Source: Planctomycetales bacterium
GTDB lineage: Bacteria; Planctomycetota; Planctomycetia; Pirellulales; Pirellulaceae
DNA: 49,771 bases
Direction: 5' to 3'
Assembly: GCA_020426925.1 (NCBI GenBank)
Contig: JAGQPC010000229.1
Span: forward strand, 1-49,771
Shown here: piece after piece, positions 6,943-36,100 of the stretch
Numbering within the stretch: the stretch's first letter is position 1
Layout: every line of letters starts with the position of its first letter
Notes under the pieces: model-generated
Seen by the model: the letters and a program-made list of their open reading frames with translations, nothing else
Database searches by the model: none
Told to the model about the DNA's origin: nothing
Program-made: the position numbers and the translations under genes

Positions 6943-7053
6943 GGCAGCGTGTAAGACCACAGAGACAGTGAGTCAAGTAAGACATTAGTCTACACCTTTC
7001 CGGCACGGTCCGCTGTGCAATTCTGTTCCGGCAGAACGCAGAAAACCGACTGA

Positions 7054-14541: not shown

Positions 14542-15900
14542 TCAATGCAATCCGTAACGGTTCATCTTGTAGTGCAGGGTGCGGACGCTCACGCCGAGTG
14601 CCTTTGCGGTGTTTTCACGGTGGAAATCGTTCGCGGCGAGAGCAGCTTGAATGGTTTCTTTTTCCGCTGCTTCGATTGCTTCCGTCAGCGTCAGGCCGGT
14701 TGCGGCGCTGGTGCTGGCGGTCGTCGCGAGTTCCGCCGGTAAATCGTTCGCAGTGATTTGATCATTGGCGACCGTGACAACGAGACGCTCGATGACATTT
14801 CGGAGCTGCCTGACGTTGCCAGGCCAGCTTGCCGCGGTCAAAATCTGGAGCGCTGTTTGATCGACGATTTTGGCTGCACGTCCATGACGCGAACAAAAGT
14901 GCGAAAGGAAGTGATCTACGAGCAGCGGGATATCGTCGCGTCGTTGTCGTAACGGCGGAATCTCGACCGGCACAACGTTGAGGCGATAGTACAGGTCTTC
15001 GCGAAACGAACCGTCCGCAACGAGTTGCGGTATGTCGCGATTGGTGGCCGATACGATTCTGGCATTCGATTCCAGGTTTTCCTCGCCGCCCACGCGAAAG
15101 AACTGCCTTGATTCCAAAACGCGCAACAGGTCTACCTGGCTCTTGGCTGGTATCTCAACGATCTCATCCAAAAACAGCGTGCCATCGATTGCTTGTTCGA
15201 AACAACCTGGCTTTTGCCGAGAAGCTCCAGTGAAGGCTCCTTTTTCATGGCCGAACAATTCGCTTTCGAGCAGTGATTCCGGCAGCGCTCCGAGATTCAC
15301 CGCAACGAATCGCCCTGACGATCGATCACTCAAGTCATGAATTGCTCGTGCAATGAGTTCCTTTCCTGTCCCGCTCTCACCACGAATCAGCACTGTCGCA
15401 TCGGTATCGGCCACCTGCTGGATCTGTTTGAGGACTTCTTTTAATGCTTGACAGTTGCCGATGATTCCAGAGACTTCGCCTGCTTTGGCAAGTCGATCTT
15501 TGAGCGCTCGGTTCTCGGTTTGCAGCCGATGGTGTTCTACTGCCTTCGCCACCTGCTGACGAATCAGCTCTAAATCGACAGGCTTTGTGATGAAGTCAAA
15601 CGCTCCGCGACGCATAGCCTCGACGGCTGTTTCAACGGTTCCGTGTGCGGTGATCACAATTGCCGTCGTGTCCGGTTCGCGCTGCCGCAAGAGCGAAATC
15701 AACTCCAGGCCGTCTCGATCACCAGGAAGGCGCACATCGGCGATGACCAGCTGAAATGTCCCAGCGTCAAATTTATCGAGCGCTTCATTCGCTGAACCGG
15801 CGGATTCAATTCTATCTGCGAGCTTTTCCAAGCCCTTCGCCAGCCCGGACCGAATGTTCGGTTCGTCGTCGACGATCAGAATGTGGAATGGATCATCCAT
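14542..15900 (-). CDS. Sigma54-dependent response regulator (NtrC family bacterial enhancer-binding protein)
   Basis: Receiver domain (ILIVDDEP ... VIADVRLPG). AAA+ domain with Walker A GESGTGKELIARAIH and the sigma54-contact loop GAFTGA (EKGAFTGAS). C-terminal Fis-type HTH (ENTAKALGVSVRTLHYKMNRYGL). Confidence 0.93.
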   Translation of the reverse strand: MDDPFHILIVDDEPNIRSGLAKGLEKLADRIESAGSANEALDKFDAGTFQLVIADVRLPGDRDGLELISLLRQREPDTTAIVITAHGTVETAVEAMRRGAFDFITKPVDLELIRQQVAKAVEHHRLQTENRALKDRLAKAGEVSGIIGNCQALKEVLKQIQQVADTDATVLIRGESGTGKELIARAIHDLSDRSSGRFVAVNLGALPESLLESELFGHEKGAFTGASRQKPGCFEQAIDGTLFLDEIVEIPAKSQVDLLRVLESRQFFRVGGEENLESNARIVSATNRDIPQLVADGSFREDLYYRLNVVPVEIPPLRQRRDDIPLLVDHFLSHFCSRHGRAAKIVDQTALQILTAASWPGNVRQLRNVIERLVVTVANDQITANDLPAELATTASTSAATGLTLTEAIEAAEKETIQAALAANDFHRENTAKALGVSVRTLHYKMNRYGLH

Positions 15901-15906
15901 GCACGA

Positions 15907-17277
15907 TTACTCGTTGGCGCTCGCGTGGCTTGCAGTCGGCAATGAGAAATTCAATTGAAACACTGTTCCACGCGGCGATGAGCGGAATTCCAAACTGCCG
16001 TCGTGCTGCCTCATGATCTTGTCGCATAACGCCAGTCCAAGTCCAGTGCCTTCGTCCTTTGTTGTAAAGTATGGATCGAAAATCTTGTCATGAAGTTCCT
16101 CTGGCACGCCGCAGCCTGTGTCGCTGACTTCAACGCAGATTGATTCCGAATCCGCAAATGCTGAGATCGTCACCTTTCCGCCGTCGGGCATCGCATCTAA
16201 CGCGTTGACGATGATATTGAGCAAGACTTGTTCCAATCGGCCAGAGTCGGCGAAAGGTTGTGGCAAATCCTTTGGCAGCTGTAGGTCAATCGCCACGGAT
16301 TGTGCACTAGCTTGCGGTGTGATGAGGTCAATTTGACGCTGGATCAATTGCTTTAGATCTACGCATGCAAGATTGAGCTTCCCAATTGACGCGAAGTCTC
16401 GAAACCCTTCCAGAACGCCGCCGACTCGCGCGACTTCTGTTTCGATCACACGCAGCATGTGACGTACTTCATCACACGACTCAGCGCCATCAGAGAGTTG
16501 CTCTTTTAGCAACTGCACATGCAGTGAGAGCGCGGTCAGCGGGTTTTTGATCTCATGGTGCAGGCCAGCTGCAAGCGACCCAAGTCCCATGTAGCGTTCC
16601 ATGCGACGCATGCGACTTTCGATTAGAAATCGATCGGTCACGTCGCGCAGCTGAAGGACGAAACCGATTTCTTGGTCGTCGATGTCGCTTAAAGTTTGGC
16701 AGAATGCCCGCAACACTCGAGCACCGTTTGCTGACAACTTGAAGTCTCGAGTCATTGCGACCGACTTTTCAACTATCCAGTCCTTTCGGAATTGTTCGAT
16801 TGGCACAAATCGAGAGAGTTCAGACAGAGGGTGTCCGACGCAGTTAATTTCCGGCCTCAGCATTTCCAAGCCGCGTCGGTTGATGCTGGTCACAATTCCG
16901 CTCAGGTCAGTTGTGATCACAGCTTGGTCCATGCAGCTGAGGATATCACCAGCTAGCGCTTTCAGATCACGCAGCGATTCCTGAGACGATCGGTAGGCTC
17001 GTGCCAACAGCACGACAGCGAATCCAGTAACGACCAGATTCAGAACAATCAATATGGACAATCGAAACTGCCATCGCAGCTCGCCTTCCAGAGCTTCAGC
17101 TTTATTCTTGGCAGAGACCGGAAGCTCTCGAATTAGTTCTCGAACAATCTGTTGTTCCGCCAGAAAGTCGACCATGACCCACACGGTTACAGCAAGTGCC
17201 AGCACACTTAACGCCAGCACAGCGACGATGGCGACTCGCCGCGTTCCGTCGGATTCGGCTTGCTTAACTCGAAACAT
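15907..17277 (-). CDS. Sensor histidine kinase (2 TM, short outer loop, PAS, HisKA, HATPase_c)
   Basis: H-box HHEIKNPLTAL, N-box LLNIIVNALDAM, and G-boxes DTGCGVP / GTGLGLAL. It lies 6 nt upstream of the response regulator. Confidence 0.9.
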   Translation of the reverse strand: MFRVKQAESDGTRRVAIVAVLALSVLALAVTVWVMVDFLAEQQIVRELIRELPVSAKNKAEALEGELRWQFRLSILIVLNLVVTGFAVVLLARAYRSSQESLRDLKALAGDILSCMDQAVITTDLSGIVTSINRRGLEMLRPEINCVGHPLSELSRFVPIEQFRKDWIVEKSVAMTRDFKLSANGARVLRAFCQTLSDIDDQEIGFVLQLRDVTDRFLIESRMRRMERYMGLGSLAAGLHHEIKNPLTALSLHVQLLKEQLSDGAESCDEVRHMLRVIETEVARVGGVLEGFRDFASIGKLNLACVDLKQLIQRQIDLITPQASAQSVAIDLQLPKDLPQPFADSGRLEQVLLNIIVNALDAMPDGGKVTISAFADSESICVEVSDTGCGVPEELHDKIFDPYFTTKDEGTGLGLALCDKIMRQHDGSLEFRSSPRGTVFQLNFSLPTASHASANE

Positions 17278-17681: not shown

Positions 17682-17697
17682 TGGCACCTTAATTGCT
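17682..17697 (+). promoter_or_regulatory. Sigma54 (RpoN) -24/-12 promoter TGGCACcttaaTTGCT
   Basis: Exact match to the consensus TGGCAC-N5-TTGCW. It sits directly upstream of dabA and opposite a GAFTGA-containing activator gene. Confidence 0.75.
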
Positions 17698-17791
17698 AAA
17701 CGTTGGCTACACCATCCGAAGACGCTCGCGACACCATTTCAGCAACCGCGGTTTTCGGCATGAACGCCTACCCGCAGCCCTCAAGACGAAA

Positions 17792-20700
17792 TTGGGACAC
17801 GACGTGCCAGCTTTGGACCTCGAACAAACCCCCGCCCAAGATCAGCCAGCGTCGCGGCAATCTGCCATTCGCCATCAGATTGAGCACGCGGCTCATTTGT
17901 TACCGTCGCAGGGCCCAATTACAGTCTTTGTTCATCACAACACGCTTCACTCGTTTGAGCATCTCGACTTTGACGCTGGTGTCCAAGTTGGTGGTCGAAC
18001 GTTTGGTTGCAACGCTTATCTGACTGAGGAACAATACCGCGAAAAGCTGGATCGAGGCCGCATTCGCGTCGAAGATCTGGAAGCCGTTTTACAGGAAGAC
18101 CTTGGAGATGAGGCCGACCGCCTCGTGTCGATATTCTGTACAAGATATTCTTTGCGGCTTTCCATGCTTCAGTTTTCGATGCACACAGGGTCGACCCATG
18201 AGCTTCGTTGGGTTGTTGCGGAGACGGACGCACTTCGGCGGTTTCGTGAAGAAGTCACATACGGCATTCGAGCAGAAATGCTGTCCGACACTCGCAAGGC
18301 TGTTCTTGAGGGACCAGCGGACACGGCCGAGAAACGTGAAACGCTTGACGAAGTGTTGCAGCAATTTGAAGCGCCGGCTCCACAGAAGTGGACTGACCGC
18401 ACGTGGGAAGCGTTCGTACTGAACTATTTGTGGCGCGTGTGTTGTGATGGAGTTCAAGGGGTCGAAAGGTCGACCGACCCGAAAGCCTCAAGTGAAACGC
18501 CGGTCCGCCATCGTGATGTCATCATCGCAGCTGGCGGTGAAGATCCCGACTTACCAGTGCACGAAACGTTGATCCGATTTTGTGCGGCGTTTCTCGATCA
18601 GGGATTCGCAGATTGGGACTTGCCGGGTCGGGAGCTTGGGTTTTTCAGTGCCTTCCTAAGGCAGCATGCCGATGGCGTGGTGCCAACGCGATGGTTTCGG
18701 GCGCTCCGCCATGAGTGTCGCAGGCTGTTGGACGCAGGCACTAAACCGATGGATTCCATTGAGGAGTCGTTGAGCTTACTGGGCGTCGACGAAAGCGAGC
18801 AGGAAGCGTTCATCACACAGTCGTTGCTGGCGCTGCGTGGCTGGGCAGGAATGGTCTGGCAACTGGAAACGAATGCTGAGTGGGCTCCACACCCCGCGCC
18901 TCGCGATACCTTGATTGAGTTTCTCGCGATTCGGCTTGTGTTGGACCGAATCGCAATTGAGTTAGCAGCACGCGACATACCCAACTTCAACGCTTTGCTC
19001 GCAGAACTTCGCACCAGCTTCAGGCGCGATTACAATGAGCAATCGCTATCTGATCGCCTCGACCTGCGAGCCTTCACCGTATTTCAGCTGGCACAAGTTC
19101 TTGGCTGGAGGCCGCGAAGTCTTGAGAATCTCGCGCCGGAGCAGTGGGCCGTGCTGGTGAAGGAGATCGAGTTGTTTCCCTCGATGGAACGTCGTCGTAT
19201 TTATCATCGAGCCTTTGAAAGAAAGTATCGGAACGAGACACTCGACGCCGTCATCGCTCATAATCATCTGACGCATCCGCAGCCATCGTCGCCACCACTT
19301 TTTCAGGTAATCACTTGTATCGATGATCGCGAAGAATCGTTTCGTCGGCATTTAGAGGAGATTTGCCCCCAGTGTGAGACGTTTGGGGTTGCCGGTTTTT
19401 ATGGTACTGCGATGTATTACCGAGGGCTTGGACACGCACATTTCAAGCCGCTATGTCCTGTGTCGATCAAACCGTCTCACCGCGTGGTCGAAGAGCCGGT
19501 TTACTCACAGGCAGAGCTAGAAAGGCAGAAATCGGCAGCTAGGCGGCGTCTTGGGAAGTTAAGTCATCAGACGCATCGCGGTTCCCGATCTTTTTTTGGC
19601 GGGATTCTAACGGCGCTCGCCGGATCGCTGGCAGTGTTCCCGTTGGTTGGTCGAGTCCTGTTTCCTCGTGCAACATCGAAGATCCGATCATGGTTGGGGC
19701 GGATTGTCGAAACGCCAGCCACTGAATTGCGGATCGAGCAGGTTCCGGACGAAGATCCTGAAGGAATGGGCTTTACGATTGGCGAAATGGCCGACATCGT
19801 TGAAGGAGTGGTTCGTTCATCCGGCCTCGCCGTCCAATACTCTCCATTGGTCTTCGTCTTGGGGCACGGTTCAACGAGCCTGAACAACCCGCACGAGTCC
19901 GCGTATAACTGCGGCGCGTGCGCAGGCAGTCAAGGCGGTCCCAACGCGCGAGCCTTTGCGATGATGGTCAACGATCATCGCGTTCGCCGCATTCTTGCTG
20001 ACCGAGGCCTGAACATTCCAGACTCAACGGTCTTTGTCGGTGGCTACCACGATACCACGAACGAGTCGATCACATTTTCAGACCTTGATAGGCTTCCAGT
20101 TTCACACCGCAATCAATTTGAAAAGGCAATCGACATACTTACCGAGGCGAGAGTGCGAAATGCTCACGAGCGATGCCGTCGATTTGAGTCTGCGCCGCTG
20201 ACGATGTCTGCCGAAGACTCGCTTCGCCATGTTGAGGACCGCCCCGAGGATCTTTCTCAGGCTCGACCGGAATACAATCATGCAACCAATGCGCTTTGCT
20301 TTGTCGGGCACCGCAAATGGAGCCGGGGGCTGTTCCTTGATAGGCGGGCATTTTTGGCCTCATACGATCAGTCGCTTGACGACGAAGATGGAACGATTCT
20401 GGAAACGATTCTCCGGGCAGCTATTCCAGTCTGCGCGGGCATTAGTCTCGAGTACTACTTCTCTACTGTAGACGTCGAAGGGTATGGGTGTGGTTCAAAG
20501 TTGCCACATAACATCACATCGATGTTAGGGGTAATGGCCGGTGCCGCGAGCGATTTGAGACCGGGTTTGTCTCAGCAGATGATCGAAATCCATGAACCGA
20601 TGAGGTTGCTATTTGTCATCGAGACGAGTCTTGCTGCGATGACGCGAATCATCGAAAACAACGAGGCAATCGCTCGGCTCGTGAGAGGTGGATGGGTCCA

Positions 20701-20893
20701 GTTGGCCGTGTTCGATCCGGTCACCCGGCACGTTCATCGCTACGTTCGTGGCGAGTTCGTGCTCTATGCACCGCATGAACGAGACATCCCAACGGTTACA
20801 TCGTCGCTCAGCTGGTACGGCGGACACCGTGAACATCTTGGATTCGCATCCATCGTTCGCCCAGGGAACGAACGCCAAGGAGGCGAAGTATGA
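17792..20893 (+). CDS. dabA: DabA (DUF2309/UPF0753), catalytic subunit of a DAB-type inorganic carbon pump; 5' end uncertain
   Basis: Family-wide motifs are present: [34 protein letters not shown]...[10 protein letters not shown] (CxDxR), [47 protein letters not shown] and PMRLLFVIE. These match what I recall of the Bacillus YbcC / DabA family. The ORF-track TTG at 17693 lies inside the sigma54 promoter. No in-frame ATG precedes the conserved core, so the in-frame candidates are TTG 17792, GTG 17804 and TTG 17813. Confidence 0.9.
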
Positions 20894-22281
20894 CTTTGGA
20901 TCAGTGGTTTTTTGGATTCGGTTTGGCAGTTGTCCTCAGCCCCGCAGTTCTATTGGCCGCGCTGGGCATGACCCCGCTGGCGGGTCGCAAGGTCAGCGAG
21001 CGCACTTCGGCACACCTGACGGAAGCCACTATTGTTGTTGGATTGGTCTCCGCCCTGGCGATTCTTGTTCTAATGCTCGCAACAGGTCGCAGGCACATTC
21101 CAATTGAACTTGGCAATTGGGTCGTGATTCCAGAGCAACATTTTCATTTCCACCTGAAGTTCGTCTTTGACCGTTTGTCCGTGCCGTTCGCGATCTTGTC
21201 GTTTGTCCTTTGCGGAACGATCGGTGCTTTTACGAGTCGTTATTTACACCGCGAACCGGGCTACAACAGATTCTTTCTTCTGTTCGCGGTCTTCCTTGTG
21301 GGGATGATTGTATCGTCACTCGCGGGCACTATTGAAACTCTTTTCTTCGGCTGGGAATTCGTGGGATTGTCCTCGGCGCTGCTGGTCGCATTTATTCAAG
21401 AACGAGTCAATCCAGTACGAAACGGACAGAGAGTTTGGGCGATCTATCGCGTCGCAGATGCAGCGTTCTTGATCGCCGCGCTTGCGTTGCATCATCTGAC
21501 CGGCGCCGGAGACTTTGAGGGGTTGATGGGGACAGGTGCATGGCCTGACGGACAAGCTACGATTAGCGAATCGCATGCACTTTTTGTTGGGATGCTCTTG
21601 TTGCTGGCGGCTGCAGGGAAATCGGCCCTGGTGCCGTTTTCTGGATGGCTGCCGAGAGCCATGGAAGGGCCTACACCCTCTAGTGCGATTTTCTATGGTG
21701 CATTGTCAGTCCATCTTGGCGCGTTCCTTTTGCTTCGCGTTAGCCCTTTGCTGGAAGTTTCATTGCCACTGTGCATCGCGGTGGTTCTAGTCGGGTTGGT
21801 CTCTGCAATATTTGGTGCGTTGGCGGCACGAGTGCAGACCGACATTAAGAGCGCGCTCGCGTTTGCCTCACTGACTCAAGTCGGAATCATTGTTGCCGAG
21901 ATTGGGTGCGGGCTGCGTTACGTCGCACTCATCCATATCATTGGCCATGCCTGCCTGCGGACATTGCAACTGTTGCGAGCACCCACGCTACTGCACGACT
22001 ACCACGCACTTGAAAACGCGATTGGTGGGCACCTGGAGCACGCTCCTACGATTTGGTCACGACTACTTCCCGACCGTGCTCGAGCGTTGGTGTATCGAGT
22101 AGCAATGGAACGTGGGTTCCTAGATGCCGTCCTGAAGGAATGCTTCGTTCGGCCATTCTTGTTGCTGTTCCGATGGTGTGATGGGATGGAACGCCGCTGG
22201 ACGGATCTGCTGTCCGGCGCTGAATCGTGTGGATCCGACCAGGTCAAACCGCACGTCGATTCATTTGAGGAATTCGTCTGA
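20890..22281 (+). CDS. dabB: DabB, NuoL/NdhF-like proton-conducting membrane subunit (PF00361 type)
   Basis: Motifs [13 protein letters not shown] and [32 protein letters not shown] parallel the NuoL motifs GWEGVGL and KSAQ.PF..WLPDAMEGPTPVSAL. The ATGA overlap with the dabA stop (20890-20893) implies translational coupling. Confidence 0.85.
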
Positions 22282-23684
22282 TGCCTGAACTTCACTTACC
22301 GTGGATGGAAGTGTCCATCCTGATTCCGCTCCTGGGCGCGATCGTCGTCGCGTGCATCAAAGACTCTGCGAAGGCCAAGATTGTGTGTCTTGTGGCTTGC
22401 AGCCTAACGCTGATATTTGCGGCAGGTGAATGGATCGATTTTGCCGGCCTCGACACCTTTGAAGCTCATGATCATTGGGATGTCTTCCAGGCTGTATTCC
22501 ATCGCGACGTGTTTGTAATCGATGAGCTCAGTGCACCCCTGCTGCCGCTGGCAGCTTTACTTTACCTGACAACTGTCATGACGACGTTGCGGACAAAGGC
22601 AAGCCGGTTCTCGTTTGGCTGGACGCTGTTTTCAGAATCTGTCCTGCTCGCCACGCTCGCCTGCCGACATCCGTGGGTGATCATTATGTTGCTTGCGGTC
22701 GCGGCTGTTCCACCGTGGCTGGAACTTCGTCACAGAAATCAAAACACACGAGTCTTTACCGTCCACATGGGCATCTTTGTGGGGCTTCTTTGTTTGGGGC
22801 AGTTCCTTGCTGGCCGAGGAGCGACGGCTGCAGATCCACCGATCATTGCTGGTTGCCTTCTGACAGCTGGAGCCCTGATTCGAAGCGGAATTTGTCCTCT
22901 CCATTGCTGGATGACGGACTTGTTCGAAAAAGCTACATTCGGCACGTCGTTGCTGTTCGTGACTCCGATGACCGGAGCCTACGCAGTGATGCGTCTGGTC
23001 TTCCCGATCGCGCCTGCTTGGGCGCTGCAAAGCATTGCAATCCTGTCATTGATCACAGCCGTGTACGCTGCTGGGATGGCTCTCGTGCAAACGGAATCGC
23101 GGCGTTTCTTTTGTTATCTGTTCTTGAGTCATAGCTCGCTGGTGCTGGTTGGCCTTGAGCTGGGAACGCCAATCGGGTTGGCCGGCGCACTCTGCGTTTG
23201 GTTGTCCGTAGGAATCTCGCTGCTAGGATTTGGAATCGCGCTTCGCTGTATCGAGGCACGCACGGGACGCCTGACGCTCGACAAATATCACGGCCTTTAT
23301 GAGCACACGCCGTTTCTGGCGAGTATGTTCCTGTTGACCGGACTGGCTTCGATCGGATTTCCTGGGACCATTGGATTCATTGGCGCCGAACTGATCGTGG
23401 AGGGTGCGGTCGAAGTCTACGCGTCCGTTGGGTTGGCCGTCGTCTTAGCTGCGGCTCTTAACGGGATTGCCGTGGTGAAGGCGTATTTCCACGTCTTCAC
23501 GGGAACACGCCATGCGGCGGCTGTGCCGATCCATTCCCGCCTTGGCGAGCGAATTACGATTCTTGTCATGGTCGCGCTGATTGTGGGCGGAGGACTCATT
23601 CCACAGCCCGGCGTTGCATCGCGCTACCATGCCGCGCGTGCAGTGTTGGAACACCGGCACCCGTCGCAGTCGCCGCAACATTGA
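22281..23684 (+). CDS. Second antiporter-like membrane subunit (NuoM/NdhD/MrpD-like, PF00361 type)
   Basis: Polytopic protein with [28 protein letters not shown] and [36 protein letters not shown]. The start overlaps the dabB stop (TGATG at 22279-22283). Confidence 0.75.
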
Positions 23685-23693
23685 AGGAACACC

Positions 23694-24455
23694 ATGCAAC
23701 ATTCTCGACAAGCACGTTGTGGCGACTTTTTGTTTCGTTGGCGGAGCTATTTGCCTATTCTGTTTCTGCCATTCTTCGCGTACAGCTTCCTGACGTTCTC
23801 GTACCTGTGGAACTCGCACACACTGCAGCACGTATGGGCCGCAGGTTGCGTGCTGGTAGCTCTCATTGGTCTGTTGGTTCGAGGCCTAACAGTCGGATTT
23901 GTTTCAGATGGAACCTCGGGCCGCAATACGCGGAAGCAACGAGCTGAAGAACTGAATACTACGGGGATGTATTCGATTTGCCGGAATCCTTTGTATTTAG
24001 GAAATCTGCTGATTTGGGTTGGAGTGTTTTCCTACACCCGAAACGTCTCAATTGTCGTCATTTTTGTCCTGACGTTCTGGCTTTACTACGAGCGAATCAT
24101 TGCCCGAGAGGAAGTCTTTCTATTGGGCAAGTTCAAACGCGAATACCGTGACTGGTGTCGCGAGACGCCTGTCTTTGTGCCAAATCCGTTCTTGTGGAGT
24201 GCGCCCGCGCGGAGGTGGTCAACTCGGATGGTGTTGCGCCGCGAGTACACATCAATACTGGCGATCGGATTGGCGTTCTTTGCCATGGATACGGCGGCGC
24301 ATTTTGGAGTTGAGAAAAAAATCTATGTCGATCTGAGTTGGACGTTGTTCGCGGTGTCGTGTGGTCTCGTGTACATCGTGCTGAGGTTTCTGAAACGACA
24401 CACGAGCGTTTTGAATGCCCCGAATGACTTGCCAGCCGACGCTATGAACGGCTGA
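23694..24455 (+). CDS. Isoprenylcysteine carboxyl methyltransferase (ICMT)/phospholipid methyltransferase-family membrane protein
   Basis: Polytopic protein with the family motif GMYSICRNPLYLGNLLIWVGV ... ERIIAREEVFLLGKFKREYRDW. It starts 9 nt after the upstream stop, with AAGGA ahead of the ATG. Confidence 0.7.
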   Translation: MQHSRQARCGDFLFRWRSYLPILFLPFFAYSFLTFSYLWNSHTLQHVWAAGCVLVALIGLLVRGLTVGFVSDGTSGRNTRKQRAEELNTTGMYSICRNPLYLGNLLIWVGVFSYTRNVSIVVIFVLTFWLYYERIIAREEVFLLGKFKREYRDWCRETPVFVPNPFLWSAPARRWSTRMVLRREYTSILAIGLAFFAMDTAAHFGVEKKIYVDLSWTLFAVSCGLVYIVLRFLKRHTSVLNAPNDLPADAMNG

Positions 24456-24506: not shown

Positions 24507-26480
24507 ATGAACAAAGAACTTGAAACCGCAATACCACGCGGCGACGCCAGTGGATTCGTGACGTACCTGAAGCAAGATCTCGTGTCGGGACTGCTCGTGT
24601 TTTTGATTGCTTTGCCGCTGTGTCTTGGCATTTCGATCGCTAGCGGCTATCCGCCAATTGCAGGTATTTTCACTGCGATCATCGGGTCGATCCTAACGAC
24701 GTTTATCAGCAACAGCGAACTTACAATTAAAGGTCCAGCCGCCGGCCTGATCGTCATCGCAATCGGCTGCATCAACGATTTCGGTGGTCCTGAAAGTCAT
24801 GACGCTTATCGGGCCGCGTTGGCGGTTGGTGCGGCTGCAGCCGTCCTGCAGATTTTGTTCGGGATATTTCGCGCCGGAATACTCGGCGAGTTTTTTCCGA
24901 CTTCCGCTGTACACGGCATGCTTGCTGCGATCGGTGTCATCATCATGATTAAGCAGGTTCCGGTAGCCTTGGGCGTGACCGCAAAGGGTGAACCGCTGGA
25001 AATGCTGCGTGAGATTCCACATTATGTCATGGAGGCCAATCCGGCGATTGCTTGCGTCGGACTGGTCAGCATCGCGATCATGTTTTTGTGGCCCATGGTC
25101 GGAAAACGCGTTGCGCTGCTGAAGAAAATTCCCGCGCCGCTGGTAGTGCTGCTAGTCGCCGTGCCCCTAGGGTTCGCGTTCGATTTGCTGCATGAGCATT
25201 CCTACACGCTACAGGGGCACAAGTATCAACTAGGCGAGCAATATCTCGTTCGGATGCCTGACCGCATGTTTGGAATGTTCGATGACATTACGTTTCCGGC
25301 ACTCGGGACACTTGCTCAACCAAAGGCGTGGAAGTGGGTCTTGATGTTCTTCATCATCGGGAGTCTTGAATCGCTTCTCAGTGCGAAAGCCGTCGACCTG
25401 CTCGATCCGTGGAAGCGCAAGACCAGCATGGACCGCGATGTTCTTGCTGTCGGCGTTGCCAACTTGTGCGTTGCCAGTGTTGGTGGGCTGCCAATGATTT
25501 CGGAGATTGTCCGATCGAAGGCCAACATCGACAACGGAGCGAGAACTCGCTTCGCCGATATGTGGCATGGGATATTTCTGCTCGCCTGCGTCGCCTTGAT
25601 TCCAATGGTGCTTCACCAAATTCCGTTGGCGGCACTTGCCGCAATGCTTGTGTATACGGGTTATCGGCTCGCTCATCCGACCGAGTTTGTTCACGTCTAC
25701 CGGATCGGCAAGGAGCAGCTGGCAATATTTGTAACGACGCTTGTTGTTGTACTCGCGACGGACCTTTTAATTGGCGTGGCAGCAGGGATCATTCTAAAAA
25801 TGGTGATTCACGTTGCGAACGGCGTTCCTATCAAGTCGCTGTTCAAGCCATACATTGAGGTGCAGGAGGTTGACGCGACGACCAGTTTGATACTGGCGCG
25901 GGAATCGGCTGTCTTTAGCAATTGGATTCCCTTTCGCAGACAGATTGAACAGATTGGGCTCGTTCAAAAACGCAACCTGATCGTCGACGTTTCCAATACA
26001 AAACTCGTCGACCACAGCGTTATGGAAAAGTTCGAGGAAATGGAGCGAGACTTCGAACAAGAGGGATTACGGTTTGAAGTTCGAGGACTCGATTCGCTTC
26101 AGCCTCTTGCTAACGACGCCCACGCAGCCAGGAAGCGAGGGTTGGCCTCGATTCGCCGCCTGATCATTGTCGCCGACAAGGAACTGGAAGATTGGTTAGA
26201 ACGCGAGTTTGTGGCATGCGGTTCGTCGGGATTCACAGTGATGCCCTGTAGCGGGGCTGGGCGACGCGGGATACGAGACGGGCAAATCAACAAGACTCCT
26301 CAAATACGAATTGAAGTCGTCGTTCCATTCGACGTGTGTAATCGCATTCTTGATTTTCTGCGAAGAGACATACTGCCCGATCATAGAGTGACGGCATGTG
26401 TGGAAACTGTCGACGTTGTTCATATTGGCCATTTCACGCCCGAATTGTCGGATGTTGAAGTGGCCTCGGAGCACGTATGA
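24507..26480 (+). CDS. SulP-family anion (candidate bicarbonate) transporter with a STAS domain and an extra C-terminal PII-like domain
   Basis: SulP N-terminal signature [30 protein letters not shown] and about 10 or more TM segments. STAS region [13 protein letters not shown]...[22 protein letters not shown]. The last ~110 aa have a beta-alpha-beta / loop / beta-alpha-beta pattern that aligns to GlnB. Confidence 0.85.
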
Positions 26481-26726: not shown

Positions 26727-27371
26727 TCATCCAATTCGGTCGGTGGCTATCCTGTATGCATCAGCGATCTCTTCTGGATCGTTGATCGTGACATTTAGAT
26801 CACGCAGCAAACCGTCTTGGAGTCCGTAAATCCAGCCATGCACCGCAAGAGTTTGAGCTCGTTCCCACGCTTCTTGAACCACCGTCGTATGACAAACGTT
26901 GAGGGCTTGCTCGACAACATTTAGCTCGCACAACCGGTCCAATCGCTCGTCATCGTCACCGATGATGCGGAGCACTCCATCATGCTTTTGCCGAACGTCT
27001 CGAATATGTCGCAGCCAGTTGTCGATCAGGCCCAGATGATGATTTTGGGTGGCAGCTTTGACGCCACCGCAACCGTAATGTCCGCACACAATGATGTGTT
27101 TGACCTTCAGAACGCACACTGCAAATTCAATGACGCTGAGACAATTGAAATCGGTATGAACTACGACGTTCGCGATATTGCGATGTACAAAAACCTCGCC
27201 AGGGATTAGGCCAACAATCTGATTGGCAGGTACTCGGCTGTCTGCGCAACCGATCCAAAGAACTTCAGGCGTCTGCTTTTCGGCGAGCTTCTTAAAAAAG
27301 TCCGGGTCTTCTTGGGTCATGGAGTCGGCCCAACTCCGGTTGTTTTCGATCAGTTGGGGTAAGAAGCGCAT
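26727..27371 (-). CDS. can: Beta-class carbonic anhydrase, E. coli Can-like
   Basis: Colinear with E. coli Can as I recall it: EDPDFFKKLAEKQTPEVLWIGCADSRVPAN (CxDxR), VFVHRNIANVVVHTDFNCLSV, HIIVCGHYGCGGV (HxxC) and LCELNVVEQ. Confidence 0.93.
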   Translation of the reverse strand: MRFLPQLIENNRSWADSMTQEDPDFFKKLAEKQTPEVLWIGCADSRVPANQIVGLIPGEVFVHRNIANVVVHTDFNCLSVIEFAVCVLKVKHIIVCGHYGCGGVKAATQNHHLGLIDNWLRHIRDVRQKHDGVLRIIGDDDERLDRLCELNVVEQALNVCHTTVVQEAWERAQTLAVHGWIYGLQDGLLRDLNVTINDPEEIADAYRIATDRIG

Positions 27372-27508: not shown

Positions 27509-29461
27509 CTATCTCCGCCGACGGGTCGCGCGATTCTTCACTGACTTTTCAGCTTGGACTGTGGCTTCTGCCCGATCGATTGCCCCGTCACGATTCGCGT
27601 CGAAATTGCGAAAAGCAAATTGACCAAAAGTTTTGGGGAGCTCTGATTCTACCAATCGACCGTTGTTGTCTTTGTCGAATCGTTTAAAAAAGCGGTCGAC
27701 CGTTTTCTTGACCAACCGCGATTCAGGAGTCTCAGCGGTCTCTGGCGGCTGAATTGTTTTCGGATCAACGGGCACCGAAATGCTGCAGTAAGTCAGCATC
27801 ATTTCGTCTTCCGACTGCTCGCCCCAGCGAACCGTTCGCGAAGGATCTGGGTTCGTCGGGTTACTCGCCGAATTGTCATAACGGGCTTCACACAGAATTC
27901 GCGTTTGAGCATCGAGCGCAATAGGTCGCTCCAATTGATAGGTGTGCTGCCAATTGTAGTCGTAATCGGGAACGTCCAGCAGAATCGAAGATTCCTTGTC
28001 GCGGCGAATTGTGCAGCGAAACGATTTCCCACGAAGATGCATGTGAGGCGATAGCGACAACAGCATCGCCTCCTTGGGGAACTTGCTTAGTGACGCTCCG
28101 ACTCGATGATTTGCCGCGTGTGCTGGAATGGCAAACGATCGGTTCTGTGCCAGCATTGTGAACACGCGCTCGGTTACAGCGTCTGGGTCCGCAAAGACAA
28201 TACCAATTCGCGTTACATCTGTTTGTGTTCGTCCTGTCGGTGTGTAGTGCAGTTGAAAAACCAATTTTGAACCGGCAGGAACGAAGTAAGCTTGGTGAGA
28301 CTTCAACCGCGTGACATCTTGCCCTGGGACATAGGCGGCGAGCCAGCTCATCGCTTTTTCGCCCCACTCGTCAGGCGTCACGACCGACACGATTGAATGA
28401 TGGACAACACCGCGGTTTCCGGGGACAACTTCCGCGGCCGCAATCCATTGATCTTCTTTAAATCCTGGATCAACGGTGAAGTACTGATACTCGATAATTC
28501 CTTCGGCGGGCACACGAAAAGGAACCTTCGACATTTCGAATACTGCGTCGGGCTCCTTTTCTAATCGCCAACCGTCCACGAACTTGCGAGGTGCAGGCAA
28601 ATCGGATTCATCACCATACGGAGCGTCAGCCTTCACCCAATCGTAAATCAGCTGTTTCTCTGATGGTGATAAACGACGAGCATTCAAGAACTTTCCATGT
28701 TGTGGATCGGCGCTCCACGGAGGCATGCGTCGATCCTTGACAACTTCGGCAATCATATCCGCCCATCCGACTAATTCGCTGTAGTCGTCCATTTGGAACG
28801 GACCGATGTCTCCGTCACGATGGCACTCGGCACAGTGTTTCTGAAACAACCGAGAAATCTGATTGCAGTATGTCACCTTATATTCGCTGCTTGGTTTCTT
28901 CACTCGGCCGATGATACATCCCACAGATTCTGTCGACGAATTTGAGACCGAATCACCGCTGAGCAGTTCTTCTACTGCAACTCGCAAATCGTGTTTCGTG
29001 GGAGCCGCGCGAACGTAGCCGACGCCGTACTGGTCATCGATTCGACCGTGGTAGCGCACAACTCGGTTTCCGTCCAGAACGAAGACTTCCGGCGTTCGCG
29101 TAGCCATGAGCTGATCGACGATTGCATTGTCATTATCTCGTAGAATCGAAAACTTGATTCCGAGTTCTTTTGCGTACTCTTGAATATCGGCCATTGAATC
29201 TTGCGAATTGGCGTTAACTCCGATGACGGCAACTTCTTTCGAAGAGTACTCGTCGGCCAATTGCTGAAGTCTGGGACCATAGAGTTTCGCCAAGGGGCAT
29301 TCCGTTCCCAGCACGGCAACCACGACGACTTTGGAATCAGCAAAGCTGGATAGCGCGCAGCTTCGACCATGCTGATCGTGAGCCTCAAATTCCGAGACCG
29401 GACTGCCGATGGGAGATACCGCTAGCGTGACCGCCGACAGCGCGTGCAATAAAAATGTCAT
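27509..29461 (-). CDS. Multidomain redox protein: redoxin/AhpC-TSA-like + c-type heme motif + copper type II monooxygenase (PHM/DBH)-like + two EF-hands
   Basis: Thioredoxin-fold region VVVVAVLGTECPLAKLY has a single Cys and no CxxC. Heme motif CAECHRDGD. Cu-ligand-like series VVHHSIV, FQLHYTP, PHMHLRG, DEMMLTY. EF loops DKDNNGRLVESE and DANRDGAIDRAE. The ATG at 29461 (MTFLLHALSAVTLAVSP) is preferred to 29500. Confidence 0.8.
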   Translation of the reverse strand: MTFLLHALSAVTLAVSPIGSPVSEFEAHDQHGRSCALSSFADSKVVVVAVLGTECPLAKLYGPRLQQLADEYSSKEVAVIGVNANSQDSMADIQEYAKELGIKFSILRDNDNAIVDQLMATRTPEVFVLDGNRVVRYHGRIDDQYGVGYVRAAPTKHDLRVAVEELLSGDSVSNSSTESVGCIIGRVKKPSSEYKVTYCNQISRLFQKHCAECHRDGDIGPFQMDDYSELVGWADMIAEVVKDRRMPPWSADPQHGKFLNARRLSPSEKQLIYDWVKADAPYGDESDLPAPRKFVDGWRLEKEPDAVFEMSKVPFRVPAEGIIEYQYFTVDPGFKEDQWIAAAEVVPGNRGVVHHSIVSVVTPDEWGEKAMSWLAAYVPGQDVTRLKSHQAYFVPAGSKLVFQLHYTPTGRTQTDVTRIGIVFADPDAVTERVFTMLAQNRSFAIPAHAANHRVGASLSKFPKEAMLLSLSPHMHLRGKSFRCTIRRDKESSILLDVPDYDYNWQHTYQLERPIALDAQTRILCEARYDNSASNPTNPDPSRTVRWGEQSEDEMMLTYCSISVPVDPKTIQPPETAETPESRLVKKTVDRFFKRFDKDNNGRLVESELPKTFGQFAFRNFDANRDGAIDRAEATVQAEKSVKNRATRRRR

Positions 29462-29633
29462 CTGTTCCTTCGTTCTGTTCCGCCTCAGGCCGTGCCTCAA
29501 ATCGACCTGATCGCCAAGGAGGGCACGTTCGTATTGTGCCCAAAGTGATCGACCATGTCACCTCGAAATTGGAACTTTTACTCACAATCGATGAGAATGC
29601 CGATTGTGCCGCCGATTTAGATCGCGATTTGAA

Positions 29634-30127: not shown

Positions 30128-33100
30128 CTACCAGCGTGTTAACCAAGCAATTACAAGCGTACCGAGAACAATTACCCAACCGAAGAGACTGGGTTGCAAG
30201 AAAAGCCACCAAGCAATACCGCACACGATCGCACCGGTGTAGATCCAAAGATCTGCCTCCGTAACAGAAATAGGCTTGAATCGACTTTGGATCGCAAACA
30301 CACCGACAAATACGGCAATCATTGCGGATGCCAGGCGAAGCAATACGGGCGTTTGGTCGACTTGTACAAACTTCACGCGTACTTCACGGATCGGCTCGGT
30401 TCGCACAGATCGAAACGCCGTGTTGAAGTTTGAATAGGGATCCGAAAGCGAGTAGGTTGTTTCCACGTACTCTGGATTCGAATCCAATTTCCGGTCGTTC
30501 AGATAGAATTCGACATTGTCAACGTCAGCCGTGATACGAAATTGCCACGTTGTCTGCTCCGGATGCAGCATTTGATCGGATTCACTTACCGACGTTGATA
30601 ACTGCACGAACTTGGGGAACTCGACGATTTGAAATGCTGCTCGCGAGACATCAAACTGGGCCGTTGTCCAAACGACACGCAGTCGCTGTTCCACTGACGA
30701 TCGGGCAAACGGCAAAGTAACATAGCCGTCACTTTCTGATACGGGAACAACGGCTCCGTTTATCGAGATTTGCTTGACCACACAACCGTCTGGTTTGGTA
30801 AAAGCAATGCCCCCGTCTCCTTGAACGACAATTGAAACATCTGATATGACTTGAGGCTGCGGTCGGTCGCAGACGGTGTGGCGAACGTCAATTACTCGCG
30901 ACGAACCGTCATCGACATCTGTGTTTGATTTCACTAGCGATGCGTCGGGTGACGAAACGAGATACACGTCATAGTCGCTCACGTCGAAACCAAAGCTGGT
31001 CGTGGTACTGTCGAGCGACTCCATGCCAATCGGCAACCATTCGTCCTCGGTCTCTGAAGAGTTCATTGCCACGAAAAATCGGCTGACATCACCATTAGTG
31101 ACGCCGATTTGAGCGGTCAAGCGTTCATCAGTTGCAGCTATCTCTCCGCTAAGGTCAATTGTGTCGCCTTTGCGGAACGGAACTGCCGGCCGCAACACAA
31201 CGATTTGCTGATTTGGAAATGGAGACGGCATCAACGCCACGGTAATAGCGTTAACCGTGATCGGGCGTTCCCAACTAGCCGGCAAAAGGAGTCGGATCGA
31301 GTCACACGAGTCGCTCGCACCGCTGCTGCGAACGTTATTGATGCGGCATTTCAAGTTGTAACTATACGCATCGCCCGCTGGCGCAAAAAGTAACAATGTC
31401 TCCAAATCGACGCTGCTGTCTGTCCTTTCAACATTCAGTGTCATCATGGCATTGTCCGCAGTTTTGCTCCACACTGATTGTCGGAACGCTGAGGTAGTAT
31501 CACGAGAAATACCTGCGACGTCCTGTGTTGCGGCTGTCGCTGTTTCGTACCCCGAGGCAGCGACATTCACAACCTGGATTCCCGGCTTTCGATAGATCGA
31601 TAGTTGTTCACCTACCTTGAGCATGTTCGGAATCGCAACCGATCCGCCCGAATGCCGCAGTTGCCCGCGTATGCGAAGCCTAGCCTGTCCAGTTCGCCTT
31701 TCCGGCAGAAAAACCGCGACCGAGTTACTGTCAGCTCGCGACCAGTTGAGCGAATCATTACCGGTTTCTGCCAACATTGAAACTTCTTTCACAATAACGT
31801 CGTCGGGAACCGGCAAGCGAACCTGATAAAGAGACTCTGCACTCAAATCCAGAGTCGCGGTGATGATCAGATCCGATTGAAGCTCTCCAACGAGCAGCGA
31901 TGCTTGGAGAGATGCCTCAGTTTGAAACGCCCTAGATTCGAATGCGAAGACACAGCTGTAGTTCGCGGCATCGTTAATTGTATAGGTGTACGTTGGAGGG
32001 GGCGTGGCGGTTTCCCAGACTTCCGAAAACAAGGAAGATGGAATCGACGAGATGCCTACGGTTCGCCAAGGAGTCATGGCGCGAGTGTTATTGCTCGATG
32101 CAGCAATGATGCTCGACACGACTTCCGCGCCCGTCACATGGACTCTAGGGATGCGGATTTTTCCGACGCTGGTAACTCCTGCAATGTCAAAATGAACATG
32201 AATCAACGCTTCCGTTTCAGATAAGATGTGAGGAGCAAAAGAGAGACGCGTGCGATTTCCATCGAGTTGATCCACACCGAGCGGTTGGTCACCGCTCTCG
32301 TTAGGGACTAGTCGAGAATCGACGACGACATCAAGCGGTCCGAATTTTCCCGCCATCGACTGCAGCAGGAGCCTCAACTCGTACCGAACGCTGTCTTTGT
32401 CAACTTTAAGCCAACCAATCTGTGTCGCTGTTACTTTGCCGTCCAGGCCTTTGCTGTCGTCGGCAGTCCACGTTAGATCTAACGTTTCAATTGGACCCAG
32501 AAACGCTGTGACTTCACGCTGCTGAGTATCGCGCTCAACTCTGCCAATGGAACGAACGCGAATTGCATTTGTATCAAGGAACGACGACAGCTGAACCGTT
32601 GAATCGGAGACCTTTACGATAGGAATCGATATTGAGTTGTCGGCTCCATTGGAAGAAACAGGCACCACATACGTCAGCTCCAATTCGTAGTGATTCCTGT
32701 CTTCAAACGACAGATTCAACGTCTGTGTGTCGACATCTTGTTGTAAGACAATTGGTTTCCGATCGAGCCTCGCCTCCAATTGCAAAAAACGCATAGCTTC
32801 CGGCGGAATGGGCAATCGGACCAGCACATCGTCATTTAGCGTTTCAATTTCATAGATGCCTGTGATTTGAACAGTGTCTTCTGCGGATACTTGGGCTAGC
32901 GTCGCTCGGTAATTCACTGATCGCAATAACCATTTTGCGGCGAGTCCTTTCGCTCGGGCGTCGTATTCGAGCAGGCTATCGTGGAAGGTTCGCGACAAGT
33001 AGACGTTGTCATTTTCTTTGTCTGGATCACCGTTTTCGTCGATGGGCACGTAAACGCTTTCCAGGCGGTTTGGTGCTGAGGTATATGGTTGATCTTGTGC

Positions 33101-36100
33101 GTCTGCATAGTTCGGCCAGCTAGAAACGCAGACAAGTCCAAACAGACCGGCAATGATCGGTCCGGCCGCCTTTACTGCAGCTGATTCATAAACCGTTCGC
33201 TCGGAACGCATGCGAAGCCAAAGCGCACGTCGAGACCAATGAAGCATTGCGCCCGCAACTGTCCCCCAAAAAACCATAGTTCCTGCTGCCGCTAGATTGC
33301 TAGGCAAAAGTAGGCAGGCAGCCCCAATAATCACAATCGCAGCGAAGGTCCAGTGCGCACCCAAACGGGAAACGATCCACGCGCAGCCTGTCGCAAGCAG
33401 GAAGCAGACAACGGAGACTCTAGTAACGAAATTGCGGTCGACGTAAGTGAGTGTTGTTTTTTCGTGTCCGCCTGGCACAATCGTTAGCTGCCACCCGCCT
33501 ACGACTAGCGACAAACTGTCAGGGGGACCGACTTGCCATCGAGGCAAATCATCTTGCAAGCGCCAACTCGAAACCGTATCTAGGCTGTCCAACTGCTGGC
33601 TAATGCGAGCGTCGATTGATTCGGCAGAAAATAGGCTATCGCGGACAAGCACTACGTTGGGTACTTCCGTCCATTCAAACGGCACGTCAAGCATGCCGAG
33701 TGCTTCTGCAGTGGTAACGTACAGGTGCGTTCGCGTGGCGATTATGCCTAAGTCAAGTTGTGAAAAAAAGTGTTCGGCGTTGTCCGTTTCATTGGCCGCG
33801 TTGGTGTTTACCTTGGCGTCGGGGGAGATGCCGCGATGTAGGAGACGCTTGGAATCAAGCATTGGGACGATCAACGTTGCTGAGCGGGTGATGCGGTTTG
33901 CGTTGTCGAATGCTTGGATAGTCTGATCCCACGTCATCGTATCATCATCGGCTGCTTTCATGATTTCCGTGACCAGCAGGCGTGCGGACTGCAGAGCATC
34001 GGATCTGGTGTTCCCTTGAAACAGCTGAATCCAGCTTTGGTCAGAAAAAAAATCAAACGGTTTGGAACCTGGAACTCGCGCAAACACACCAAAAAAACGG
34101 TGCATTACGTCGTGAGTCGTAAGGCGAGTGTTCCAATGCTGTGGCAGAGTCGGCAGCGCCGCAGGCGGCGTCCATACCTTCCACTGATGTTGAAGGACAG
34201 GCGATTCCAGGCCAATGCGCGGGCATCTGACGTTTTGTCCAAATCGCTTAGATACAACCGACTCAGTTTGCGGCTCGGTCATTTCAATCCGCACAACTGG
34301 ATAGCGATTGGCAGATGGCAAAGGAATCTGAAACGTGCCAGGCTCGTTGCTCGCCGATGTCACTCGTTGCTCGTCAACATGAATTTCGTTGACGATATAC
34401 TCATTGGGAACGACAACTGGCAAAACGTTTTCTCCATGGTTTTCGACGAACATGGAGATGACATGACGATGTTGGCCCGTTGGATCAACGATTGTCGTAG
34501 GCTGCAACAGCCATACTGTGGAATGCTGAATCGCGGCATGGCTGACCGCGCGGACTCGCAGGAGCGGTCGGTTCGCCATCGACGCTGGTTGAGAAACGCG
34601 GTATCGCAATCGAGGGCTAACCACCATGTCGTCGCTTGCTGCGATATCGGGCTTTTGGTCGACTCCAGCAAATTGCTGGACGTCAATCTGTGTGTCCAAG
34701 GACGACGTCACTGTCACTTGCCCAGATTGCGTCTGTGCGCCCGGGACGAAAATTCCGTAGATCGTAAACTCATCGTCAAACGGGACAATCCTTCTCCCGA
34801 TCAGAGTAAACGGTTGATCCATGGATCTGGGCATTCGAATCACTCGCGAGTTGTTACTGACCGTTTCGACAATTGGCAGCTCGTCCGAATCAAGTGTCCA
34901 GCGGTAAGGAACGTCGCGACCCTGCAAATGCACTTCCAACGAACGCACCGCGCCGGACATTGGAGTTACACGGACTCGCACGCTTTCATCGGAACTTACA
35001 TTTGATACGTGATACAGAAGTTGCACTTCTGCGCCAAAAGTTGCGTCGCTGTTTGTTAATGTGAACGTAACACCGGACGCATCATCGTCGAGTGCGATCA
35101 GCGCATCTGTTTCGAGCAATTCCATAGAACGCCGCAACAAAGCAGGAAGCGAATCATACGTCATCCATCGACCATTTTCGCCGTCAGTCCAAGTAATCCG
35201 ATTTACATCTGAATTCCGCACTGCCACGAGGCGGCTACCAACATCGTGAGCATCGAAACGTAACGCCTCAAGAGCTTCGACTGGGTACGTTTCGTTGCTG
35301 GCCAAGCGTCGAGTCGCGGTAATGACCATCTGCGTAATTCGAGATTTGTCGATTGGTCGGCGAAGCGACACTTGCAGATGCGTCGGATCCGCCGACTTTT
35401 TTTGCTCCCATCGTTCGACGAAGTTAAGCGTTTGACCGTCAACCGATCGCAATTTCACACTCTCTACGTTCCAGCCCGGCCGCACCGTCGACGAGATCTC
35501 AAACAAATCGCCTTGCAAGACGTTGATGTTTGCGATCGATTGTGCCTTTGCAATGGAATCGGAAATCTCGATCAACGTTGCTACGTCGAATCGTGCTCGA
35601 CTGTTAACGTGGCCAAGCGATACCAGAACAGATCCTTGCTCTTCGGCATACTCGAATTTGAAGGACTGGTCCGAGGCATCGGAATCGTCCACTTGCTGAC
35701 ATCGGTTTAATTCCAGTGCGTGGATGACGATTGTGCCAGACAGATTTAGGTACGCAGCTTCCTGCATCCACTCGCATTGTGGACTTGAAACTCGTGGCAA
35801 GGACTGCGGCTTTTCGATGTCGATGTCAGCGAGCCCATCAATTTGGATGGTTTTTCTTGTGTGGGACGAAGCAGCGTCTCGATTTAGTGCAGGAACGTCG
35901 ATAGGCAAATCAACGGTAATCGTCTGGCTGCCATCATGGTGAACCTCCAGGATTTCCCAATCCGCCACTTTGTCGTTTACATGCACATTCAGCGGTTGCA
36001 GTCCTGAGGACAATTGGAATTCAACCGCCCTTGTGGAATCCGGGACGTCCTCGATGTGGATTGTCGACCGTATTTCCAGTCCTACGTCTGAAGCACCGTA

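Follow-up and report, generated by a model that had tools for sequence, protein, structure and literature searches.

A planctomycete DAB-type locus in which DabA is followed by a short NuoL-like and a full-length NuoM-like membrane subunit

In a 49,771-nucleotide contig of a Planctomycetales bacterium (JAGQPC010000229.1, assembly GCA_020426925.1; the whole stretch is called the window below), we analysed a DAB-type locus in which the gene for the catalytic subunit DabA is followed by two genes encoding membrane proteins of the PF00361 family. DABs are CO2-uptake systems of many chemoautotrophs, numerous heterotrophs and pathogens, and are candidate parts for engineered CO2-concentrating mechanisms; the way in which proton flow renders their carbonic anhydrase vectorial is only now emerging from the DAB1 and DAB2 structures. 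At the window locus, three open reading frames (ORFs) follow one another on the plus strand. P2 and P3 are used here as working names for the first and second PF00361 genes after dabA; lengths are in amino acids (aa) and transmembrane helices are abbreviated TM.

17693-20893, + strand: dabA, 1066 aa as the maximal ORF (likely start GTG 17804 or TTG 17813), predicted cytoplasmic beta-carbonic-anhydrase-like subunit, PF10070
20890-22281, + strand: P2, 463 aa, short DabB/NuoL-like subunit with TM1-11 and a conserved, predicted cytoplasmic tail of ~90 aa, PF00662 and PF00361
22281-23684, + strand: P3, 467 aa, full-length 14-TM NuoM-type subunit, putative 'long DabC' counterpart, PF00361

Both junctions within the locus overlap, by four bases between dabA and P2 (gtATGAct) and by one base between P2 and P3 (tcTGATGcc), which suggests translational coupling of the three genes. 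A first-pass annotation made from the sequence alone had reported two distinct PF00361 proteins of 463 and 467 aa after dabA with both junctions overlapping, and the ORF coordinates and Pfam assignments agree with it. The best protein matches for the locus proteins were from Stratiformator, Thalassoroseus, Bremerella and Lignipirellula, all members of the Planctomycetota.

Related loci (n = 85) comprised the best 80 loci found with a P3 family pattern, which was built from a 12-sequence alignment, together with two complete genomes and three metagenome contigs. The best 80 loci all belonged to Planctomycetota (Pirellulales, Planctomycetales, Gemmatales and Isosphaerales). Among the 73 loci holding all three genes, 72 had the order DabA-P2-P3 on one strand; the exception, in a Gemmatales metagenome-assembled genome (L057, 4964-12473), was arranged as SulP, P2, P3 and DabA, resembling the B-C-A order of DAB1. 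P2 was directly upstream of P3 in 73/74 loci, and DabA was present in all 60 loci with enough upstream sequence. Because the arrangement recurs so regularly, we judge that it is not due to chance, and on these comparative grounds we regard dabA-P2-P3 as one conserved module. The earlier suggestion of a three-subunit DAB variant therefore gains support from the strict co-conservation, order and overlap of the three genes. In two metagenomic contigs (L086, 2822-6994; L098, 4859-5371), DabA and/or P2 were called as fragments while P3 was intact, reflecting either pseudogenisation or assembly frameshifts.

A search for P3 representatives returned 332 clusters (50% identity) at E < 1e-30. A second P3 subfamily (34-39% identity) was found in Vicinamibacterales and other Acidobacteriota, as judged by the names attached to the proteins, and the P3 homologue of one related locus (L085) is named Vicinamibacterales. 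Three loci of this second subfamily had the same DabA-P2-P3 layout, as did those of two further divergent P3 relatives; all five distant loci were thus concordant, and these five give the breadth of the arrangement outside Planctomycetota. P3-family genes accompanied DabA in every context examined. On plasmids, no P3-type gene was found, the best matches being MrpD and NuoM at 25-31% identity. The DabA, P2 and P3 proteins of the window type each formed a clade of their own.

The 1066-aa ORF encodes DabA, matching PF10070 over the whole profile (E 8e-234) and H. neapolitanus DabA2 (PDB 9rd0_A) with E 3e-68. The beta-carbonic-anhydrase-type zinc ligands of DAB complexes (Cys, Asp, His, Cys) are present, leaving an intact zinc site in the window protein, and the zinc-site residues C542, D544, R546, H725 and C740/C743 were invariant in 58 sequences. 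The hydrophobic membrane 'finger' of DabA is also present (about residues 631-656) and carries no acidic residue. In all seven canonical DabAs, the finger reads x-x-E-[AS]-x-G (e.g. FVESAG, TVEAVG, LAEAAG), whereas window-type sequences have LTALAG, FAGIVG, LTGVVG and similar. No finger acidic residue was found in any aligned window-type DabA (57 sequences in one alignment, six in another). In DAB2, the finger residue Glu444 of DabA2 replaces NuoL Lys399/Asp400 and is essential (PMC13144422). Window-type DabA formed its own clade (bootstrap 100) in a small neighbour-joining tree and did not group with DabA1 (bootstrap 11).

P2 carries PF00662 and PF00361, the latter covering profile positions 6-227 of 294. 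Its best NCBIfam match was NuoL (205 bits; cut-off 556), followed by NdhF, MrpA and NdhF3 (TIGR01960, 104 bits; cut-off 588.7), and its best PDB match was NuoL/ND5 (E 3e-40), with DabB2 (9rd0_B) at E 7e-26. The alignment to E. coli NuoL spans TM1-TM11 and stops there. Similarly, the hydrophobic segments of P2 end near residue 372, and the last ~90 residues are soluble yet conserved, with the motif YRxAlERGyLDa...FVxPF...cDxlERrWtd, which weakly matches the 'YFDE.Y..FVRP' segment of NuoL near helix HL. TM12-15 are absent by hydropathy and alignment, and topology places the tail on the predicted cytoplasmic side. P2 orthologues had a median length of 466 aa.

Most of the NuoL-type channel residues are retained in P2. 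In 72 orthologues, the positions of NuoL E144, R175, D178, K229, D303, K305, H334 and H338 were invariant or nearly so, with P2 residues E156, R187, D190, K244, H349 and H353 invariant; the H254 position was always Tyr and the K342 position always Arg. We compared these with seven canonical DabBs, six from two-gene dabB-dabA loci (Staphylococcus, Pantoea, Mycolicibacterium, Thiodictyon, Halobaculum and Phaeobacter) and DabB1 of N. hamburgensis. The TM5 Glu was invariant in the 72 P2 sequences but absent from 7/7 canonical DabBs (G/A/T/I/L/T/F at this position), all of which keep H254 and K342. A neighbour-joining tree of 357 columns (100 bootstraps) recovered the P2 family (100) and canonical DabB (95) each as monophyletic, and the two as sisters (82). 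Therefore, P2 is best placed as a separate branch lying deep within the DabB lineage.

In P3, PF00361 is the sole Pfam domain. The top NCBIfam match was NuoM (132 bits; cut-off 263.8), with MrpD and NuoN next at ~70 bits, and NuoM was also its best PDB match (E 2e-18). These matches, together with those of P2, agree with the first-pass description of one NuoL-like and one NuoM-like subunit. A P3 family profile (36 sequences) aligned with E. coli NuoM over its full length (hhalign 99.6%, E 2e-24). An AlphaFold2 model from an 82-sequence alignment reached a predicted local distance difference test score (pLDDT) of 86.4 and a predicted template modelling score (pTM) of 0.87, and its best Foldseek matches in the PDB were NuoM, NdhD, ND4 and MrpD, with TM-scores (TMq) of 0.82-0.87. 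NdhD3 of NDH-1MS (6tjv_D) was among these best structural matches (TMq 0.84). The NuoM K234 column corresponds to P3 Arg201 (TM7), which was conserved in 75/75 sequences, position 370 (TM12) was acidic in 74/75 (E 71, D 3), and a conserved Glu148 is located nearer the cytoplasmic end of TM5. Conservation differed between the two halves of the protein: the C-terminal half had 60.5% identity, with 80/270 columns at least 90% conserved, compared with 41.8% and 19/190 columns in the N-terminal half. Across the related loci, mean identity to the window protein was 53% for P3 and 48.5% for DabA, and P3 is under purifying selection.

The first-pass annotation took DABs to be two-gene units, a premise that is incomplete. 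DAB1 was described as a three-gene cluster (also DAC) in 2018 (10.1101/476713), and a 2026 preprint reports the structure of the Thermocrinis albus DAB1 at 2.13 A as a DabA-DabB-DabC heterotrimer (10.64898/2026.05.01.722082). According to that work, DabC falls in no Pfam family, overlays the NuoM helices next to NuoL, is hydrophobic where NuoM has channel charges, and is essential but judged non-conducting (10.64898/2026.05.01.722082).

We examined the relationship of P3 to DabC with family profiles. A DabC profile (24 sequences) aligned over its whole length to residues 196-440 of the P3 family (96.1%, E 2.9e-9); BLASTP of P3 against N. hamburgensis DabC gave no match. In the profile alignment, P3 Arg201 and Glu370 stand opposite Pro and Leu of DabC, which agrees with the hydrophobic residues described at the DabC channel positions (10.64898/2026.05.01.722082). 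Against single P3-family sequences, the DabC profile gave 7e-3 and 2e-4, only modestly better than its values for E. coli NuoM (4e-2), NuoN (0.34) and NuoL (0.46). Given that the DabC profile is matched along its entire length by the C-terminal half of P3, we read P3 as a putative full-length counterpart of DabC and not as DabC itself. A downstream gene of the PEMT/LmtA-like type, whose 253-aa product has the same length as DabC, was considered as DabC and ruled out (hhalign 0.3%; absent from 85/85 related loci).

DAB1 examples (the T. albus structure, H. neapolitanus Hneap_0907-0909 and the N. hamburgensis plasmid locus) resemble the window type in having three subunits, in a third subunit with an apparent relationship to those NuoM helices that face NuoL, and in the size of DabA (about 1040 aa, compared with 1029-1066 in the window type). 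At the N. hamburgensis plasmid locus, dabB (565 aa, full PF00361) is followed in turn by dabC (253 aa, no Pfam match), dabA1 (1037 aa) and a P-II gene. The differences are considerable. DabC, at ~250 aa, has no Pfam match and no channel charges, whereas P3 has 467 aa, PF00361 and the conserved TM7 Arg and TM12 Glu; the 565-aa DabB1 has the full PF00361 domain and no TM5 Glu, whereas the 463-aa P2 ends after TM11 and has it; DabA1 has the finger Glu that window DabA lacks; and the gene order is B-C-A in DAB1 but A-P2-P3 in the window type.

The two-subunit DAB2/MpsAB system (DabA2-DabB2, PDB 9rd0) shares with the window type the PF10070 catalytic subunit, including its zinc ligands, and a NuoL-like partner in which TM1-11 carry a TM7 Lys and TM11 His pair. 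The window type adds a second PF00361 subunit. DabB2 has 15 TM, of which TM1-11 superpose on NuoL, and its TM12-14 are tilted, which admits the DabA finger and holds Glu444 of that finger (PMC13144422); in contrast, the window type has neither TM12-15 nor the finger Glu. The NuoL TM5 Glu is Ile151 in DabB2 (PMC13144422).

Two further systems pair an L-like with an M-like subunit. In NDH-1MS (NdhD3-NdhF3-CupA-CupS), as at the window locus, such a pair is combined with a CO2-hydrating protein, a parallel that the first-pass annotation had drawn and had itself marked as inference. The likeness holds for composition but not for homology: the catalytic protein at the window locus is DabA, which is unrelated to CupA, there is no redox input, P2 and P3 score higher against the NuoL and NuoM models than against the NdhF3 and NdhD models, and no CupA/ChpX or NDH-1 core genes were seen among the neighbouring genes examined. 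The resemblance is probably convergent and one of composition only. The other comparison is with the NuoL-NuoM pair of complex I (and with MrpA-MrpD). The fold of P3 is that of a complete NuoM, the NuoL ion pairs E144/R175 and K229/D178 persist in P2, and an acidic TM12 residue of P3 lies close to the position of NuoM E407, in agreement with the actual M/L junction. In contrast to complex I, P2 has no TM12-16, all curated cut-offs were missed, and no other nuo or mrp genes were seen nearby.

Four features thus vary together relative to DAB1 and DAB2: the TM5 Glu/Arg pair is kept in P2, TM12-15 of P2 are lost, the finger Glu of DabA is lost, and a full-length P3 with the TM7 Arg and TM12 Glu is present. 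In complex I, the TM5 Glu/Arg pair faces the preceding subunit. With moderate confidence, we propose that P2 and P3 form one membrane complex with DabA, constituting a third architectural class of DAB pump in which protons would pass through a NuoM/NuoL-like P3-P2 junction. Such a DAB probably moves protons differently from the two solved types. In the proposed arrangement, DabA would be the zinc-dependent, beta-carbonic-anhydrase-like catalytic subunit on the cytoplasmic face, and P2 would be the DabB equivalent, a NuoL-like TM1-11 core with the cytoplasmic half-channel residues that has lost TM12-15. P3 would most likely dock on the TM5 side of P2 through its conserved C-terminal half (TM7-14, the DabC-equivalent part), a placement modelled on NuoM-NuoL and DabC-DabB. 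Since TM12 is missing from P2 and the DabA finger is without the Glu that replaces NuoL Lys399/Asp400 in DAB2, periplasmic proton entry is assigned to P3 and would be supplied by its TM9-13 bundle with the conserved Glu370. Protons would then be passed laterally to the P2 cluster Glu156/Arg187/Lys244/Asp190 and travel along P2 Tyr269/His349/His353/Arg357 towards DabA, where proton flow would make CO2 hydration vectorial. The bicarbonate product could feed carboxylations in a heterotrophic planctomycete.

Several points weigh against this proposal. Gene content, strict co-conservation, the fold and family assignments and the residue patterns are direct observations, from which we infer the subunit arrangement, the proton route and the physiological role. 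In P3 a number of the NuoM channel positions have changed: the first-pass question of whether the channel Lys/Glu residues are retained has a largely positive answer for P2 and a mixed one for P3. The NuoM E407 column is P3 position 369 (T/A/S), with Glu370 one residue later whether aligned by phmmer or by hhalign; where NuoM has its mid-membrane TM5 Glu (E144), P3 has A/S/I/T; the TM8 column of NuoM Lys265 is L/M/I/Q; and window P3 has Val opposite NuoM His348. With these residues gone, P3 may be purely structural, as proposed for DabC. Furthermore, the direct DAB1 comparison is with one locus, that of N. hamburgensis, the TM count of P2 and the fold of its tail are taken from hydropathy and alignment (a single-sequence model was unusable, pLDDT 42.8), and the PF00361 phylogeny, which upholds the DabB affinity of P2, is a small neighbour-joining tree without NdhF3, NdhD3 or broad Mrp sampling.

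The strongest alternative builds on these changes. P3 would be a structural or allosteric 'long DabC' that stabilises P2 and DabA without conducting protons, and the path would run through P2 and the DabA finger, as in DAB1 and DAB2. The apparent homology of the C-terminal half to DabC, which is itself essential but judged non-conducting (10.64898/2026.05.01.722082), is consistent with such a role, as are the weakly conserved N-terminal half and the lost mid-membrane TM5 Glu, TM8 Lys and, in the window protein, His348-aligned residue. However, a structural P3 leaves unexplained why, of the DabB relatives, only P2 has kept the TM5 Glu/Arg ion pair facing the neighbouring subunit, why the invariant TM7 Arg and the TM12 acidic residue, both lost in DabC, are kept in P3, and why the essential finger Glu of DabA is gone; without TM12-13 of P2, it also offers no place for a periplasmic half-channel. 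We therefore consider a purely structural P3 possible but somewhat unlikely.

P3 could instead be a second, independent proton channel, so that two protons would be used per CO2 and a steeper bicarbonate gradient could be held. This would fit its full 14-TM NuoM fold, modelled with high confidence, and the charged residues kept in TM7 and TM12. Yet from the NuoM set E144, K234, K265, H348 and E407, only the K-to-R exchange in TM7 and the Glu shifted by one residue in TM12 remain, and the region of the N-terminal half-channel is the least conserved part of P3. Since several canonical NuoM residues are gone, an independent second channel seems improbable. Finally, an Mrp-like or complex-I-derived cation antiporter module of P2 and P3 that merely adjoins dabA, as their shared PF00361 domain and weak MrpA/MrpD model matches might imply, can be dismissed almost entirely given the strict synteny and the position of P2 in the tree with DabB: one half of an antiporter subunit is missing from P2, every score falls far short of its family cut-off, the P3 family was found with DabA in every context examined, and the neighbouring genes of the window and of the related loci showed no MrpB, C, E, F or G and no further nuo genes.

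Returning to a complex with a P3-P2 junction, a bolder form of the proposal, which we put forward tentatively and consider possible but somewhat unlikely, is that this is a deep-branching and possibly ancestral-like DAB whose proton path is split, with the periplasmic half in P3 and the cytoplasmic half in the truncated P2. If this were true, a working M/L junction of the complex I type would have been preserved outside any redox enzyme, and a reduction series could be drawn from a full M-like partner, through the half-size DabC of DAB1, to none in DAB2.

The novelty of the locus is narrower than the first-pass annotation suggested, because three-gene DAB1 with a small DabC is already published. 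What is new is the pairing of a third PF00361 subunit of full length with a DabB-like subunit of 11 TM. In the openly searchable literature (which does not include papers behind subscription, among them the Scott-lab DAC and MDT surveys), we found no description of a DAB with two PF00361 subunits, of a 'DAB3' or of a planctomycete DAB. The window architecture drops two elements that are central in the solved structures, DabB TM12-14 and the DabA finger Glu, and restores two that are missing there, the TM5 Glu in the L-like subunit and an M-like partner that is charged and of full length. For this reason, the trio is a natural experiment on which coupling parts are essential. For the study of lateral proton transfer from one antiporter-like subunit to another, a step that is debated for complex I, P2 and P3 would also represent a minimal system of two subunits. 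The architecture is widespread among Planctomycetota and also occurs in Acidobacteriota, and as both are abundant environmental phyla, it may have a role in dark CO2/bicarbonate assimilation.

Several other features lie around the trio.

14542-17277, - strand: divergent two-component pair, sensor histidine kinase 15907-17277 (HisKA, HATPase_c) and sigma-54-dependent response regulator 14542-15900
17682-17697, + strand: sigma-54 (-24/-12) promoter consensus TGGCACCTTAATTGCT (TGGCAC-N5-TTGCT), perfect match at dabA, overlapping the nominal TTG start
23694-24455, + strand: PEMT/ICMT-family membrane methyltransferase (LmtA-like), 253 aa, 186 bits (below cut-off), between P3 and the SulP gene
24507-26480, + strand: SulP-family anion transporter with a C-terminal P-II domain, PF00916 and PF00543, weak BicA match; not a DAB subunit
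26727-27371, - strand: beta-carbonic anhydrase (Can-type), PF00484 E 2e-54, NF007756 302 bits (cut-off 251); convergent, just downstream of the cluster
27509-29500, - strand: 663-aa protein with an AhpC/TSA-redoxin domain, a cytochrome c (cbb3-type) motif and C-terminal EF-hand motifs
42470-45712, + strand: carB, carbamoyl-phosphate synthase large subunit

The sigma-54 consensus has one exact match in the window, where 0.07 were expected, while sigma-70 promoter and terminator scans of the sequence gave results at chance level. Because TTG 17693 falls inside this consensus, the true start of dabA is probably later, at GTG 17804 or TTG 17813. The divergent response regulator has Response_reg, Sigma54_activat and HTH_8 domains and forms an NtrC-type pair with the kinase; the same kinase/regulator pair is found upstream of dabA in two related loci (L063 and L084). 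These features suggest that the DAB operon is under sigma-54 two-component control. Sigma-54-like sites with 1-2 mismatches were present upstream of dabA in only 7/61 relatives, including Stratiformator (L002) and L063, and the control therefore appears to be lineage-specific and not general.

The SulP/P-II protein, in which no STAS match was found, is a candidate bicarbonate transporter. A SulP homologue adjoins the DAB trio in 24/85 related loci, and in eight of these the alignment reaches the P-II part. In DAB1 operons (N. hamburgensis, T. albus), P-II is encoded by a gene of its own, whereas at the window locus P-II is fused to SulP, and this common association hints at shared P-II-type regulation of inorganic carbon uptake. 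Genes for beta-carbonic anhydrases also flank the trio in Stratiformator, which has three, and in Lignipirellula. Placed beside a vectorial CO2 pump, a conventional carbonic anhydrase should short-circuit it unless the regulation of the two differs.

Rubisco and carboxysome genes were not found in the set of annotated window ORFs, a set that leaves out the large ORFs 3079-6960, 30128-36940 and 36856-40254, and the window DAB probably supplies bicarbonate to a heterotroph. The carB product consumes bicarbonate, and the position of this gene, 19 kb downstream of the DAB cluster, may be coincidental. The domain combination of the 663-aa protein is unusual, and the minus strand carries two very large ORFs (2270 and 1132 aa) within 30128-40254.

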